Part shown: in pieces, positions 17,671 through 48,502 of the stretch | Numbering within the stretch: the stretch's first letter is position 1 | How the letters are laid out: each line of letters starts with the position of its first letter | DNA from: Thermoplasmatota archaeon | GTDB lineage: Archaea > Thermoplasmatota > Penumbrarchaeia > Penumbrarchaeales > Penumbrarchaeaceae | Assembly (NCBI GenBank): GCA_049472215.1 | Contig: JBLIRH010000001.1 | Location: 43,308 to 107,307, forward strand | Length of the DNA: 64,000 nucleotides | Direction: 5' to 3' | Made by a program: the position numbers and the translations under genes | The notes under the pieces: generated by a model | Told to the model about the DNA's origin: nothing | Seen by the model: the letters and a program-made list of their open reading frames with translations, nothing else | The model's database searches: none

Positions 17671-18144
17671 TCAGGCAGTGATACGATCGATGATCATCTC
17701 GTAGGCCTGGCCAAGGCTTTTTTGCAGCTGGGAATAGTTCTCGTGTGCCCCGGCCCTCTTGAAATGGTCCGTCAGGAAATCCAGCGACTCGAAATTCTCT
17801 ATGAAAAGCATTCTGGTGACCTTGGTGCACGAAGGATCCGGATTATCCAGACACGGCATTTCCAGATCTGAAAAGAAGGAATCCCTAGGGACCCTCTTTT
17901 TATCAATGGACATTTCCTCGATGCTGAACCCAAGTTCGCTGCAATCGGGGCAGGTGAACAGGAGGTTGTCCTTCCAGACCCACGTCTGGTAGGGTTTGCT
18001 GCATTTGGGGCAAGATATGTCCGGACATACTATTGCAAGGTCCGTACAACTTCTTCTTGTCATGGGGATCGACCTTTTCGATACCTCATGGAAACTTAAG
18101 GGATATGATATCTGTTCCTGAATTGTTAGGCACATTCGCTCCAC
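17671..18144 (-). CDS. Hypothetical zinc-ribbon protein
   Basis: CPDISCPKCSKP...FTCPDCSELG gives a CxxC...CxxC ribbon. Likely start at the internal MTRRSC. No recognisable enzymatic motif. Confidence 0.4.
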   Translation of the reverse strand: MERMCLTIQEQISYPLSFHEVSKRSIPMTRRSCTDLAIVCPDISCPKCSKPYQTWVWKDNLLFTCPDCSELGFSIEEMSIDKKRVPRDSFFSDLEMPCLDNPDPSCTKVTRMLFIENFESLDFLTDHFKRAGAHENYSQLQKSLGQAYEMIIDRITA

Positions 18145-43788: not shown

Positions 43789-44853
43789 ATGGACCTTAAT
43801 GACCTTGGATGGGGCCCGGAACTCGAAAAAACTTACAACCAGCTTGGGCTCGATGGGGCTGAAGGGATCTCGGTCGGGAGGATATCCTTCTTTGACGGGA
43901 CCCATTACACCATCATCACCGAGAGCGGTGATGTTCGGGGAAGGTCATCTTCCAAGGTTCTTGGGGAGGGGGCCCCTGCCGTGGGTGATTGGGTTGTTGT
44001 AAAACTCTCCGAGACCGGTAACATAATTATCAAGGTCCTTCCGAGGAGCAGCTGTATCTCAAGAAAGGTGCCCGGTAAGGAGGTCCAGGAACAGGTCATA
44101 GCTGCCAACGTTGACCTCCTCTTCATCGTGATGGGGGCCGACAGCGACTTCAATCTCCGAAGACTGGAAAGATACCTTGCCATGGCATTTGCTTCCGGTT
44201 CCCGGCCCGTTGTTCTTCTGAACAAGATCGATTCGATCGAGGACCTGGAAGAGAAACTCGAACTCATCAATAACATCGCGGATGATGTCCCCGTGCATCC
44301 TATTAGTGCTCTCAAGGGGGAGGGATTGGAGGTTCTGGACAAATACCTTGATACAGGGATTACAGCAGCCTTGGTGGGATCATCAGGTGTCGGGAAATCC
44401 ACTCTCATAAACAGGCTACTCAGGGAAGAAAGGCAGAAGACGGGAGATGTGAGGAAGATCGGAGGGAAGGGCAGGCATGTCACCACTTCGAGAGAACTGA
44501 TAGTCCTACCAAAAGGTGGGATCCTTATCGACAATCCTGGGCTCCGGGAGCTGCAGCTCTGGGGGGACGAGAACATGCTTGAGGAAGCCTTCAAGGACAT
44601 TTCCGATCTCTCGAAAGGCTGTCGTTTCAGAGACTGCCAGCACCTTTCAGAGCCTGACTGCGAGGTGAAGAGGGCAGTGGAAGACGGGACACTGGATCGG
44701 TCTCGTTATGAGAACTATCTCAAGATGAGAAAGGAGCTCCATCATCTCTCGGTCAAGATGGACAAGGGAGCCCAGGCACAGGAAAGGGCGAGATGGAGGG
44801 GCCTGCTGAAGGACGTCAAGCATTATTATCGGTACAAGAGGGAAGGGAAATGA
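43789..44853 (+). CDS. rsgA: Ribosome small-subunit-dependent GTPase A (RsgA/YjeQ), circularly permuted GTPase
   Basis: G4 (LLNKID) precedes G1 (GSSGVGKSTLIN). C-terminal zinc knuckle CRFRDCQHLSEPDCEV is typical of RsgA. Confidence 0.85.
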   Translation: MDLNDLGWGPELEKTYNQLGLDGAEGISVGRISFFDGTHYTIITESGDVRGRSSSKVLGEGAPAVGDWVVVKLSETGNIIIKVLPRSSCISRKVPGKEVQEQVIAANVDLLFIVMGADSDFNLRRLERYLAMAFASGSRPVVLLNKIDSIEDLEEKLELINNIADDVPVHPISALKGEGLEVLDKYLDTGITAALVGSSGVGKSTLINRLLREERQKTGDVRKIGGKGRHVTTSRELIVLPKGGILIDNPGLRELQLWGDENMLEEAFKDISDLSKGCRFRDCQHLSEPDCEVKRAVEDGTLDRSRYENYLKMRKELHHLSVKMDKGAQAQERARWRGLLKDVKHYYRYKREGK

Positions 44854-45072
44854 TGTCCAGGTCCTTGGGGAAATGGATAATGAAATCTTCAATTCGAAAA
44901 TGAATTATGAAAAATCAATAAGATCGGCAGCACCCCCTCGATATATATTAATGAAATGGAAACCGATAAATCAGGTATAAATCAAGTGCATTTCAATTGT
45001 TAAAGGGATAAATTATTTAATTCTAATAATCTATATTCATTTGCATTCCACCTGTGACCCGGAGGTGTATTA

Positions 45073-45633
45073 ATGGACGAGAAAATGTACAAAATAAAGA
45101 TTAAAGAAGAAGATATGGTCGTTGAGTTAGCGGGTGACAAGAAATTCGTTAAAAAGGCGTTCAACGAGATAAAGAAGATACTCAACAAGGACCTCAAAAC
45201 TCCCAGAAGCATTGCCGACAAGAAGACCAAGAAGAGACGAAAGAAACCAGGTCGGAAGAAGAAGCCGGGCCCGAAACCAAAGAAGAAGGTCAAGCCGAAG
45301 AAGATACCAAAGAAGGACCGGGTCGACATGCGCTCCATGAAGCTCGAGGAGATCTTCAAATTGAAGGCCCCCAAGAGAGAGAACCAGAGGGTGATGCTTC
45401 TTGCATACTTCATGAACAAGGTCGAGGGCAAGAGGGAATTCAGGGCGATGGACCTTCCACCTCTCTACAAGAAGCTCAAGCTCAAGGTACCAAAGAACCT
45501 CAGCTATTTCCTGAGGAAGATGTCAGAGGACGAGAAGGCCCTCCTTACCCATGGGAAGAAGCAGGGCAGGTACAAGATCACCGACAAAGGGATCGATTTC
45601 ATTTACAATGTGATCCCCGATGCGAAGAAGTAG
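45073..45633 (+). CDS. Lysine/proline-rich DNA-binding-like protein: N-terminal domain, KP-rich linker (H1/AT-hook-like), C-terminal winged-helix-like domain
   Basis: KKTKKRRKKPGRKKKPGPKPKKKVKPKKIPKK linker. C-terminal ...EDEKALLTHGKKQGRYKITDKGIDFI resembles a MarR/ArsR-type wing. Preceded by ~190 bp of AT-rich DNA. Confidence 0.45.
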   Translation: MDEKMYKIKIKEEDMVVELAGDKKFVKKAFNEIKKILNKDLKTPRSIADKKTKKRRKKPGRKKKPGPKPKKKVKPKKIPKKDRVDMRSMKLEEIFKLKAPKRENQRVMLLAYFMNKVEGKREFRAMDLPPLYKKLKLKVPKNLSYFLRKMSEDEKALLTHGKKQGRYKITDKGIDFIYNVIPDAKK

Positions 45634-45676
45634 AGAAAAGAACATTATAGAGATGTTCTGATCTGTTCATGACGAA

Positions 45677-45717
45677 CCTTGGTGGGTCATCATGGCCCAC
45701 CAAGGTGATCTATTTTT
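45677..45717 (+). terminator. 10-bp perfect hairpin CCTTGGTGGG-N9-CCCACCAAGG followed by a T-tract, downstream of the K-rich gene
   Basis: Read directly. A second small inverted repeat GAACAT-N7-ATGTTC lies at 45640-45658. Confidence 0.45.
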
Positions 45718-45776
45718 CATGCGATGATCCAAGGGACAAGATCGATTCATAGCCGATCGGATAGAACTTTGAGTTT

Positions 45777-45833
45777 CAGATCTTGAAATGGTCAAGAGTA
45801 TTTTCTTCCGCAAAATGCAGGTTTCAGACCGCG
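45777..45833. repeat. Direct repeat copy 1 (diverged), encoding on the minus strand a DphB C-terminal remnant ...NLHFAEENTLDHFKI*
   Basis: cagatcttgaaatg is identical in both copies, then codon-wise similarity with third-position differences. Pairs with 46592-46648. Confidence 0.6.
45780..45827 (-). pseudogene. Displaced 3'-end fragment of a diphthine synthase gene (14 codons after an in-frame stop)
   Basis: Minus-strand translation *NLHFAEENTLDHFKI* compared with the intact DphB C-terminus GNLHFAEEEALEHFKI*. Confidence 0.5.
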
Positions 45834-45886
45834 AAAAAAAAGACCGCTTGCCCCCTAATATACGTGAAATCCTTTTATATCCACAG

Positions 45887-46225
45887 ATGAATGTGAACCT
45901 TGTGTCAGAGATTTCCCGATTGGAACTGGCTAAGGCTTTTTCTAAAGAAGCTAAAAAGAGATACGGGGCTCGGATTGATGAGATAATTCTTTACGGCTCC
46001 GTCGCCAGGGGAGAGGATGGGAAGGATTCTGACATCGATCTTCTGGTGATCACCAGGGAGCGGATACCACATATTCAGAGAGATATCTCCGGGATGGCAT
46101 TTGACTCCGGTTTCGAGACCCATGAGAAACTTTCCGCTCAGGCCTATTCCAGACCCTATATCGAAGAACACAAGGAACTCACATTCTTCCAAAATATCAT
46201 GGAAGAAGGGATGCGGATTGGATAA
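45887..46225 (+). CDS. Minimal nucleotidyltransferase (MNT) of a HEPN/MNT pair
   Basis: IILYGSVARGEDGKDSDIDLLVI is the GS...DxD nucleotidyltransferase motif. Start taken at MNVNL because the track start (45788) lies inside the direct repeat and antisense to the dphB remnant. Confidence 0.7.
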   Translation: MNVNLVSEISRLELAKAFSKEAKKRYGARIDEIILYGSVARGEDGKDSDIDLLVITRERIPHIQRDISGMAFDSGFETHEKLSAQAYSRPYIEEHKELTFFQNIMEEGMRIG

Positions 46226-46238
46226 AGTCGAAATATTC

Positions 46239-46601
46239 ATGGAAACGGCCTACGAGAGATTGGAATCAGCTGAGATCTTACTTAAAAATGGTTTTTACAA
46301 AGATTCTGTGAATAGATCATATTTTGCCATGGTCAGTGCTGCTCAAGCAGCATTGACCATACGGAAAATCGAAGCCAAGACACACAGAGGACTGCATTCC
46401 CAATTCCATAATGAATTTCTAAGGACCCATATTCTGGAACGGGATTTTGGGAGAATGTTCGATGTGACGGAGGAGATGAGGATCAAGTTCGATTATAATC
46501 CCGAACCGGAAGCTTCAGAAGAACTAGCGGAAGATTCACTTCACCAAGCAGAAAAATTCGTTGAGGAGATAAGAAGACACATCGAGAAGGTCAGATCTTG
46601 A
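46239..46601 (+). CDS. HEPN-domain protein (partner of MNT)
   Basis: All-helical ~120 aa. Overlaps the MNT gene end. Rx4HxY-like region (KTHRGLHSQFHNEF). Confidence 0.65.
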   Translation: METAYERLESAEILLKNGFYKDSVNRSYFAMVSAAQAALTIRKIEAKTHRGLHSQFHNEFLRTHILERDFGRMFDVTEEMRIKFDYNPEPEASEELAEDSLHQAEKFVEEIRRHIEKVRS

Positions 46602-47361
46602 AATGCTCCAGAGCCTCTTCCTCCGCGAAATGAAGATTTCCCGGAACGATCAAGCAATGAGGGGGCGCCCCCATTTCCATATTCTTCAGCTCCCCAAGGG
46701 TCCCATAGATCACCTTCCAATCCTTCCTCCCCGCCCTTAACACAGCCACGACCTTGGTCCTATCTTTGATCTCCCCACCCCCCCGCTTGCCCTCCATCTT
46801 CAGCAGGATATCGCACCCTTCAGCAGCTGTCATGTACCTGTCATTATGGGACTGGATGTCGAGGAGGACAAGGGTGTGGAGCCCTCTTTCCATGTTCTCC
46901 GTGATGAAATCGAGAGGAGAAGTTGGGAAATAATCCCCTTCCGGAAAGGCAAGTGTGGTGGTCCTGCCGAACTTGTAATGCTGGAGACCTGCAAGGCCAG
47001 CCGCGGCGTTGAAGATGGATGCAGAGTGTATTATCTCTACATCGATCCCCATTTTGATCGCATCGAACCTGAGCTCCTGGTGAGTTGTCGCGGTCAAGGG
47101 GTCCCCGGCCGTCAGGATGCATACATGATCGTTCTCCTGCAAGGCTCCGATCACTACCTCTTCCTCCTCGACCTGTTCCCGGTCGAGGACAACGATCTTC
47201 TTCCCAACGAGCTCCTCCAGACGATCGAGCGAACCTTCCTCGAGAATGGATGTGAAGAACTCGGCAAAGATGATATCCGCATCCCTCATCCTGTCGAGAC
47301 CCTGAATTGACAATGACCTCTCGTTGGATATACCGAGGCCGATCATGGAAAGCCGTTTCAT
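46591..47361 (-). CDS. dphB: Diphthine synthase (DphB/Dph5)
   Basis: MIGLGISNERSL... tetrapyrrole-methylase-fold start (probable true start at 47346) and the archaeal diphthine synthase length and motifs. Confidence 0.8.
   Translation of the reverse strand: MKRLSMIGLGISNERSLSIQGLDRMRDADIIFAEFFTSILEEGSLDRLEELVGKKIVVLDREQVEEEEVVIGALQENDHVCILTAGDPLTATTHQELRFDAIKMGIDVEIIHSASIFNAAAGLAGLQHYKFGRTTTLAFPEGDYFPTSPLDFITENMERGLHTLVLLDIQSHNDRYMTAAEGCDILLKMEGKRGGGEIKDRTKVVAVLRAGRKDWKVIYGTLGELKNMEMGAPPHCLIVPGNLHFAEEEALEHFKI
46592..46648. repeat. Direct repeat copy 2 = actual 3' end of dphB
   Basis: See 45777-45833. Confidence 0.6.
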
Positions 47362-47386
47362 ACGGGCCCCTACATACTGAGAAATA

Positions 47387-48502
47387 TTAAATTATGTTCA
47401 TCTCCGAAAGCTTCTCCGGGAGATACGTGTCCGTGACGAAGTCCAGACCGTATTTGGCTAATGCTTGTTGCTCGGATTTTTTCTTCAATTTGAGCTGCAG
47501 CTTGATCTCTTCTTTCCATTTGGTCGAGGAGAACCTTGGGTCTGTCAGCTCGGACTTCAAAGCGTTGACATCATTATCCGATAGGCTGTCGCTCGGAAGG
47601 TCGTAGTTCACGATATCCGATGGGGTTATTCCAAGATACTGTGCAGCGGGGGTCGCCAGGTATTCCGAAATATGAGCGGTCTTGATCGCTCCGTAGGCTA
47701 CCGATGCGAAGATCCGGTAGGACCATGGATCACCATCGGTGAATAGGACCACGGGAAGTTTGGAAAACTCATGCAGCCGTTTTATAAAACGCCTAGTCGA
47801 CCTTGCTGGCTGACCTTTCAGATGGACAAGTACCGCCTTATGACTATCGTCGAACCCGTTCTCGACCAGTCTATCGAACATACCGCCTGTCTCTACTGCG
47901 ACGATCATCTTGGCGTTGATGCCCCTGAACTTGATCTTCTCCTCCTCCACATTGTAGGGTATCCCGTATCCCGAATCCCCGACATCGTCCTTGCAGTTGA
48001 TCTTCTTGATCTCGCCCTTCCTGTTCTTCTCCTGGATGGTGACGTCTCCTATGACCCTTGCACCGTCCTCCTCAGGTCTCAGCTTGAAATCCTCCCTGAG
48101 TGAGGTTGTGATGATCTCCAGGTCCTCTGCGAGCCTGTTGGATTCATCCTGGGTCGGGAACTTCGCCTTCTCCCATCCCTCCGAGATGTAGTACATCTCC
48201 CTCAGTGTGGAGGACTTTCCGTCCCCTATCATCTCACCTATGAAATCGATCGTATACAGGGTTCTGAGTATACTGGTGGCACCGCCAAGGTCCTTGGCGG
48301 ACCTCCTCACGACATCATCCCCGTACTTCCACACCTTGTGGTGTTTCGAGAGGACGATGTTGGATTTTGTCCTCGATGACACCTCCAGGTGGGGAATATC
48401 GCCTCCCTTGATCTGGTCGTATATGAACTCCGCTATCTTCAGAAGGCGGTCCCTTGCCAGTTTATTCCCTTTAGTAACCTCGATCTTAGACACTGGGATC
48501 AC
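47387..48502 (-). CDS. top6A: DNA topoisomerase VI subunit A (Spo11 homologue)
   Basis: Winged-helix catalytic Tyr region plus the Toprim segment (...[15 protein letters not shown]...). Confidence 0.9.

Follow-up and report, generated by a model that had tools for sequence, protein, structure and literature searches.

What kind of event could place a two-gene module between two copies of the same protein-gene ending? The question is raised by a locus in a Thermoplasmatota metagenome-assembled genome (MAG; assembly GCA_049472215.1), on a contig of 112.6 kb (JBLIRH010000001.1) from which a stretch of 64,000 nt, here called the window, was analysed. In it, a minimal nucleotidyltransferase (MNT) gene and a HEPN gene lie between the 3′ end of dphB, which encodes diphthine synthase, and a second, stranded version of that end. 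A preliminary description of the window had proposed that an incoming homologous gene end displaced the native end of dphB. Comparison with related loci (designated L001 and so on) supports this proposal, through the empty sites of L085 and L096, the alignment of the stranded copy with its flank and the match of the present dphB end to L087.

The module is bracketed by a 50-nt direct repeat (45776–45825 and 46591–46640) whose copies were 82% identical (41/50 nt) in a repeat search. When the 50-mer of copy 2 was compared without gaps with both strands of the whole window, copy 1 was the best match (41/50), and the runner-up reached 28/50. The first 15 nt of the repeat, TCAGATCTTGAAATG, are identical in both copies. 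The preliminary description had given this string as a 14-mer at 45777 and 46592; its exact length is 15 nt, and the homology beyond it extends for ∼36 nt rather than ∼45 nt, giving 50–51 nt in all. A 15-mer with one mismatch at 17857 was considered as a third copy and dismissed as a chance match, with agreement at only 16–18 of 51 positions beyond the seed.

Copy 2 (46591–46641, minus strand) is, from the repeat and the L087 match, the present functional last ∼50 nt of dphB. This gene (46591–47361, minus strand) is intact; its 256-aa open reading frame (ORF) matches TIGR00522 (dph5) at full length (E 1e-84, profile positions 2–254 of 258) and ends in ...PGNLHFAEEEALEHFKI followed by the stop codon, in agreement with the earlier view that copy 2 is the gene's real end. 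Copy 1 (45776–45826, minus strand) is identified as a stranded former dphB 3′ end by its sequence, its translation and its alignment with L085. As had been described, it is a fragment preceded by a stop: on the minus strand it reads TGA-NLHFAEENTLDHFKI-TGA, with the first TGA at 45824–45826 and the terminal stop at 45776–45778.

The two copies have diverged in the manner of orthologous genes. They differ at 9 of 45 coding nt, seven of which are third codon positions and two first positions; first and second positions together hold only 2 changes in 32, and there is no indel. Nei–Gojobori (NG86) counts over 15 codons gave proportions of synonymous and non-synonymous differences (pS and pN) of 0.60 and 0.11, with a binomial P of 0.014 for the synonymous excess. 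Whole-gene comparisons of the window dphB with those of L087, L001, L085 and L096 gave pS values of 0.61–0.69 and pN values of 0.11–0.15, and on these counts the divergence between the copies is indistinguishable from that between orthologous genes. The codon-by-codon homology claimed beforehand was therefore borne out by the 7/9 third positions and by this check. The further claim, that the pattern does not fit neutral decay after duplication, gains from the pS and pN values, but the codon pattern on its own decides little: the 7/9 excess has a P of 0.008 against a uniform null and, in our own calculation, of ∼0.07 against a duplication-plus-decay null in which copy 2 is constrained and copy 1 neutral. 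Since the codon-position test alone is weak, outgroups were relied on. Parsimony against eight orthologous ends assigned five to six of copy 1's own changes to third positions. The two changes at first and second positions, with no indel, are far fewer than expected from drift since lineages at such a pS split, and the good preservation of copy 1 in the window likewise argues against drift since the window and L001 parted. The window and L094 disagree at 3 of 11 positions within the 15-nt stretch that is identical in the two copies, and its perfect identity may best be read as gene conversion or recent exchange between the repeats in the window lineage.

The identity of copy 1 was established from loci that lack the module. 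In L085 and L096 (dphB 77% and 75% identical to the window in amino acids), dphB is followed after ∼140 nt by the lysine-rich (K-rich) gene and then by that of the GTPase RsgA, with nothing in between and without the MNT promoter region. Empty sites of this kind, in which the K-rich gene comes straight after dphB, had been named as a check on the proposal. Copy 1 with the 11 nt past its stop aligned to the real dphB end and flank of L085 with 78.7% identity over 61 nt, and the first ∼15 nt past the copy 1 stop (AACTCAAAGTT) match the L085 post-stop flank. In L096, the post-stop flank resembles that of the window and L085 only after an apparent insertion, judged by eye. In addition, the codons AAC CTG were found only in copy 1, L085 and L096, as opposed to AAT CTT in copy 2, L087, L001 and L084. 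Because of the L085 end and flank alignment and the AAC CTG codons common with both empty sites, copy 1 is identified, on alignment, as the displaced original terminus of dphB, still in its original downstream context.

Copy 2, on the other hand, points to a different lineage. Within the dphB orthologue set (P0001–P0046), the window and L087 genes differ at roughly one base in five as far as position −55, counted from the gene end, and in their last 54 nt only at −19 and −6. This tail (window 46591–46644, L087 1845–1898) is identical at 52/54 nt, compared with 77% for the rest of the gene; identity at third positions is 16/17 there (0.55 over the gene), and pS is 0.12 (0.61 over the gene). Among 25,848 windows of 54 nt from 36 gene pairs, 52 was the single highest value, with 49 the next. 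The 5′ edge of the patch (−54) adjoins that of the copy 1 homology (−50), and the patch ends exactly at the stop codon, past which the cargo of the two loci differs. As far as this comparison goes, it is the gene end, not the cassette, that the window and L087 share. Since the gene tail is somewhat conserved in general, the result suggests, without proving, that the last 54 nt of dphB are an imported, foreign patch.

The DNA between the repeats encodes MNT and HEPN proteins (PF01909 and PF05168) and no integrase, as first described. The MNT-type protein (45887–46225, plus strand, 112 aa, PF01909 1e-10) is a predicted antitoxin with a GS...D.D motif (GSVARGEDGKDSDIDL in translation). It scored 28.7 bits against the NCBIfam MntA model NF047752, below the cut-off of 60, and matched the candidate-defence family PDC-S09 of PADLOC (1e-17). 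Directly downstream, after a gap of 13 nt, lies the gene for the predicted toxin, a HEPN protein (46239–46601, plus strand, 120 aa, or 127 aa from TTG 46218; PF05168 2e-16) with an Rx6H-like RGLHSQFH seen by eye; its relatives in the PDB are HEPN/UPF0332 proteins. Going by these families, the HEPN protein would act as an RNase toxin and the MNT protein as its nucleotidyltransferase antitoxin, and the pair is predicted to be a toxin–antitoxin-like module. Its G+C content is 0.41–0.47, compared with 0.52–0.55 in the flanks. The upstream or promoter region of the operon (45833–45886, plus strand; GAAAAAAAAGACCGCTTGCCCCCTAATATAC...TTTTATATCCACAG), with TATA-like boxes visible by eye, forms the cassette-side junction with copy 1 and is near-identical in L094 and L095; the conserved cassette end reads GAAAAAAAAGACCGCTT-N5-CTAATATAC…TTTTATATCCACAG-ATG. 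At the other junction, the last 11 nt of the HEPN gene, with its stop, overlap the dphB stop convergently (46591–46601). One point concerns annotation: the MNT start at 45887 is kept in L094 and L095, and the upstream ATG at 45788, together with the ORF at 46603, is an antisense by-product of the repeat, an artefact already suspected and a warning for gene calls at such loci.

In the protein collection searched, only three close relatives of the HEPN protein were found. Two loci, L094 and L095, carry the same unit beside a dphB end; a search for it in other assemblies had been suggested beforehand as a check. L094 (HEPN 94% identical in amino acids) has the order RsgA, K-rich gene, hairpin, spacer, remnant, promoter region, MNT and HEPN, and its contig breaks 7 nt into the antisense dphB end after HEPN. 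Its promoter motif is 91% identical to that of the window, and its remnant is much more decayed than copy 1 (…EEEVLHHLSI before the stop, with one indel). In L095 (HEPN 81%), the order is gcvPA, gcvPB, 52 nt, promoter region, MNT, HEPN and an antisense dphB end, LHFAEEEEALERFRI, with its stop; the gene context is different, and the overlap of the HEPN and dphB stop codons is the same as in the window. The TCA-N5-TGA form of this overlap is kept in both relatives. In all three cases, the window, L094 and L095, a dphB-type end thus contains the HEPN stop, and therefore operon and gene end appear to travel as one unit. In the window, L094 and L001, the remnant is directly adjoined by the MNT promoter region, which in L095 lies 52 nt past the gcvPB stop. 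Judged from these relatives, the cassette is neither private to this genome nor demonstrably recent.

Other relatives carry different cargo at the same place. At the orthologous position, L001 (dphB 80%) retains a decayed remnant together with the distal half of the MNT promoter region. Between dphB and this remnant, on the dphB strand, it has a 75-aa ORF and a 127-aa retropepsin-like aspartyl protease (PF13650), the pair spanning L001 6772–7475. Searches of L001 with blastn and tblastn found no leftover MNT or HEPN coding sequence, and no flanking repeats were found around its cassette besides the decayed remnant. The preliminary description had held that a relative with the repeat arrangement and no HEPN/MNT pair would speak against it; L001 is formally such a case, with an MNT promoter stub next to a different cassette, and we read it as strengthening the insertion site. 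The same protease cassette is present in L087 (1899–2359) and L088 (920–1380), whose dphB genes are 81% identical to that of the window, and the protease matches another PADLOC candidate-defence family (PDC-M08B), as the MNT protein does with PDC-S09. The dphB genes of L001 and L087 are saturated at third positions (0.46), and from ∼35–40 nt past the dphB stop the two loci are 95–98% identical in nucleotides (third positions 0.87–0.91), which is direct evidence, at the level of sequence, for recent horizontal movement of the two-gene protease cassette into the same site. In L083, L089 and L090–93, a convergent PKD-domain gene directly follows dphB. In ∼75 more distant dphB loci, large conserved genes begin 10–50 nt past dphB, and therefore the site is not a general hot spot. 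Altogether, the loci compared mark the dphB end as a clade-specific cassette hot spot with cargo turnover. This, and the presence of the cassette in L094 and L095 with a decaying remnant in the former, had been missed in the preliminary description. Five independent metagenome contigs were also seen to break inside the dphB 3′ end/cassette junction or no more than a few dozen bases away (L094 at 2005, L095 at 3019, L084 at 6811, L087 and L088). Contig breaks at such sites often reflect strain-level presence/absence variation. A metagenome scan with the dphB alignment returned, among the matches listed, mostly relatives of ∼50% identity.

The explanation that we favour, and to which as a whole we give about an even chance, starts from DNA carrying the MNT-HEPN operon that would have entered dphB ∼50 nt upstream of the stop codon. 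One end of this DNA would have been the promoter region, and the other a ∼50-nt foreign dphB-type terminus overlapping the HEPN stop. Joined in frame, the foreign terminus would have left diphthine synthase intact (copy 2), and the native terminus would have been pushed 815 nt away to become a non-coding remnant before the old flank and the K-rich gene (copy 1). Insertion with replacement of the gene end, taken by itself, is probable. The likeliest route for it would be conservative site-specific recombination, the cassette being either a small circle or borne by an element, with an attachment site composed of the MNT promoter end followed by the dphB-like end, a crossover at the 5′ edge of the repeat and a recombinase supplied in trans or since lost; granted the insertion, we rate this route at slightly less than an even chance. 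It is favoured because the arms are too diverged for efficient homologous recombination, because the edges of patch and repeat coincide and because the same junction recurs. Indeed, the restored gene, displaced end, direct repeats, empty sites and reuse of the site form the pattern of site-specific elements in gene 3′ ends. An excised or attP-type join would then read ...AAGCGGTCTTTTTTTTCGCGGTCT directly followed by GAAATCTTCATTTCGCGGAGG, and a restored empty allele ...CTTGATCGTTCCGG followed by GAAACCTGCATTTTGCGGAAGAAAAT. The cassette would now be inherited vertically as a resident toxin–antitoxin or defence-type module, and the same site would have been reused by other two-gene cassettes in sister lineages. 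The repeats may still interact, and gene conversion would explain their identical terminal 15 nt.

Several observations weigh against this explanation. The cassette of L094, the closest relative, has diverged as far as the host genes (nucleotide identity to the window 90% for RsgA, 89% for the K-rich gene and 92% for HEPN, with third positions at 0.71–0.80), which fits one old insertion followed by vertical descent, with no sign of current mobility. The remnants of the window, L094 and L001 are only ∼65% identical to one another, which would fit single and repeated integration alike. Among the ∼75 more distant dphB loci, no duplicate of the dphB end was found at 30/48 or better beyond noise, and the genes flanking the window cassette are syntenic core genes in relatives. 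Pfam searches detected no integrase or transposase in the cargo or among 20 other mid-size ORFs of the window, which are housekeeping genes or lack a Pfam match, and in viral_contigs neither the promoter motif nor MNT, HEPN or the aspartyl protease turned up in free or viral form. Of the element or attP-type integration first proposed, the insertion footprint thus stands, and an integrase and attP mechanism is a candidate only. The patch common with L087 is only moderately extreme (52 against a next-best 49) in a tail that is generally conserved (41.7/54). Finally, the direction could be reversed, with the 15-nt identical core as the crossover and the copy 1 arm borne by the element.

This reversed polarity would make copy 2 native and the 36 nt of copy 1 an attP arm, namely a dphB fragment that the element had taken from a former host. 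What speaks for it is that the copies agree perfectly over their 3′-terminal 15 nt, which vary between lineages, and that classical att sites have an identical core and diverged arms. It gives, however, no account of a native end that is identical to L087 at 52/54 nt with a break at −54; the supposed arm differs sharply between the window and L094 next to a promoter motif that is 91% identical; and the AAC CTG codons join copy 1 to the empty-site lineages. We therefore consider it unlikely. Somewhat better placed, though still doubtful, is recombination without any integrase, using donor chromosomal DNA from a relative that already carried the dphB end, HEPN and MNT. Homology-facilitated illegitimate recombination, or a Campbell-type single crossover of a circularised fragment in the dphB tail that left the gene's own last 50 nt as the duplicate, would give an identical product, in which the gene ends in foreign sequence and its native end is left stranded. 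These routes are serious rivals: they can do without an integrase, and the searches detected none; the 15 nt common to both copies could have served as the microhomology; and, as the abrupt changes in identity between L001 and L087 show, DNA moves between lineages at this locus. Even so, homologous recombination would have had little to work with, as the longest identity is 15 nt and the arms differ at 9 of 36 positions, illegitimate joining leaves the near coincidence of the patch edge (−54) and repeat edge (−50) unexplained, and the motif–remnant junction recurs in the window, L094, L001 and probably L095, which favours a defined junction or a single event.

Two further accounts derive the repeat from the host gene itself. 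A local tandem duplication of the last 50 nt at insertion, as a long target-site duplication or by replication slippage, followed by neutral decay of copy 1 and synonymous change in copy 2, would explain why direct repeats flank the insert; the remnants of L094 and L001 are visibly decaying, and the third-position excess reaches only P ∼0.07 against such a null. We nevertheless hold it to be very unlikely, as the pS of 0.60 equals between-lineage divergence and yet copy 1 has only 2 changes in 32 first and second positions and no indel, the five to six third-position changes of its own again stand against decay, and the near identity of copy 2 to L087 would require convergence. The other account, in which the identical 15-nt string is the target-site duplication of a transposon or casposon, is effectively refuted. 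A 15-bp exact repeat is the size of a casposon target duplication, and casposons target gene 3′ ends such as that of ef-2 (PMC6563490). However, the repeat search found no terminal inverted repeats flanking the insert, no casposase or transposase was found in the cargo or the ORFs tested, and the homology runs for 36 nt past the 15-mer in coding register, unlike a target duplication.

Integration into the 3′ ends of archaeal protein genes is already known, and the dphB locus is a clean further example. Of 68 thaumarchaeal integrated elements, 14 lie in the 3′-distal parts of protein-coding genes, a diphthamide biosynthesis gene among them, and the new stop of the target gene can come from the element itself (PMC6563490). 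Like these elements, the window insert lies in the tail of a conserved gene between direct repeats, with frame and stop re-supplied; empty sites in relatives validate its boundaries, and unrelated cargo reuses the site. Unlike them, it measures ∼0.8 kb and consists of one two-gene operon without integrase, replication or structural genes, its repeat is 50 nt with orthologue-like divergence rather than a short exact att site, and its host belongs to the Thermoplasmatota, with dphB as a target that may be a different diphthamide gene. Tyrosine-recombinase elements that target tRNA genes similarly cross over at the 5′ edge of the duplicated segment, restore the target and displace its old 3′ part. 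At the dphB locus, in contrast, the target is protein-coding, an integrase was not found and the crossover is placed by deduction rather than by mapping.

HEPN-MNT modules are described as abundant in archaea and exceptionally mobile as two-gene units (PMC2701414). The window module resembles the HepT/MntA type VII modules in having MNT upstream of HEPN in a compact operon, a G+C content lower than its flanks and presence/absence variation between related genomes. It differs in an MNT protein that falls below the NCBIfam MntA cut-off, and its activity is predicted. The literature on these modules records insertions and deletions and no junction anatomy, whereas the junctions of the window cassette are defined, with a gene-end duplicate on one side and a stop-codon overlap on the other. 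Integron gene cassettes offer another parallel, as small integrase-less units, often toxin–antitoxin pairs, that use one fixed exchange site and a recombinase in trans. Unlike integron cassettes, the window cassette has no attC-like inverted repeat at its ends, no IntI was found among the ORFs tested and no cassette array was present; here the recombination site is the end of a coding gene.

Around the cassette, the gene order runs from a gene for a 1573-aa protein through a MazE-like/PIN pair, RsgA and the K-rich gene to copy 1, MNT and HEPN, and continues past HEPN with dphB, Topo VI A, Topo VI B, a 498-aa protein and a radical-SAM protein. Related genomes have this core order too. The window contains no tRNA gene. 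The K-rich gene (45073–45633, plus strand, 186 aa) is the neighbour of dphB in the empty-site relatives, and its counterparts (L001 7826–8383, L085 6919–7422, L096 6001–6516 and L097 6001–6552) encode ∼170–186 aa. Its product has no Pfam family, a weak winged-helix hint at the C-terminus (E 0.03) and ∼25 relatives, one of which is in a MAG labelled Lokiarchaeota (44% identity) and two of which seem to be copies in a single MAG (P0127 and P0130). Downstream of it, a terminator-like hairpin (45676–45706, plus strand), with a perfect 14-bp stem and a T-run after it, marks the host side; L001 and L094 have nearly the same hairpin in otherwise diverged intergenic DNA. It was the only hit of a scan for bacterial-type promoters and terminators; no structured RNA in 44800–47500, the hairpin included, matched Rfam at E up to 1. 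Between the hairpin and copy 1 lies the original dphB/K-rich intergenic spacer (45709–45775), host DNA that is ∼70% alignable to L001 and L094.

RsgA (43789–44853; YjeQ, PF03193 E 1e-47) is a ribosome-biogenesis GTPase of bacterial type whose gene adjoins the K-rich gene throughout the archaeal clade. Between the 1573-aa gene and RsgA, a MazE-like antitoxin (PF04014, 43151–43372) and a PIN toxin (PF01850, 43372–43767), with a G+C content of 0.38–0.41, occupy a position at which L001 and L085 have only ∼40–70 nt. The pair apparently lies downstream of the conserved TATA-like element that precedes RsgA. It represents a second small toxin–antitoxin insertion within 3 kb of MNT-HEPN, and no duplication footprint was seen at this neighbouring VapBC (MazE-like/PIN) insertion. 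Elsewhere in the window, two paralogues of the glutamate/leucine dehydrogenase type (PF00208 and PF02812; 28734–29996 and 31998–33332) lie 2 kb apart on the same strand.

Toxin–antitoxin and small defence modules are known to move, but the entry of a bare two-gene unit is rarely visible. The dphB locus preserves both junctions of such an entry, in which an essential translation-related gene would have been cut ∼50 nt short of its stop and mended by a foreign end. A wider reading would have the dphB tail serve as a docking site for integrase-less two-gene defence or toxin–antitoxin micro-cassettes that bring their own replacement ends and use a recombinase in trans. We regard this as improbable, yet it would explain the recurrent junction, the different cargos, the 95–98% identical cassette beside a saturated dphB and the assembly breaks, and, if true, would describe an integron-like exchange system with a coding gene terminus as the attachment site. 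If a trans-acting recombinase is involved, the locus may serve as a simple natural model of how uncultured archaea exchange cassettes; otherwise, it would be a well-documented case of gene-end replacement by recombination.

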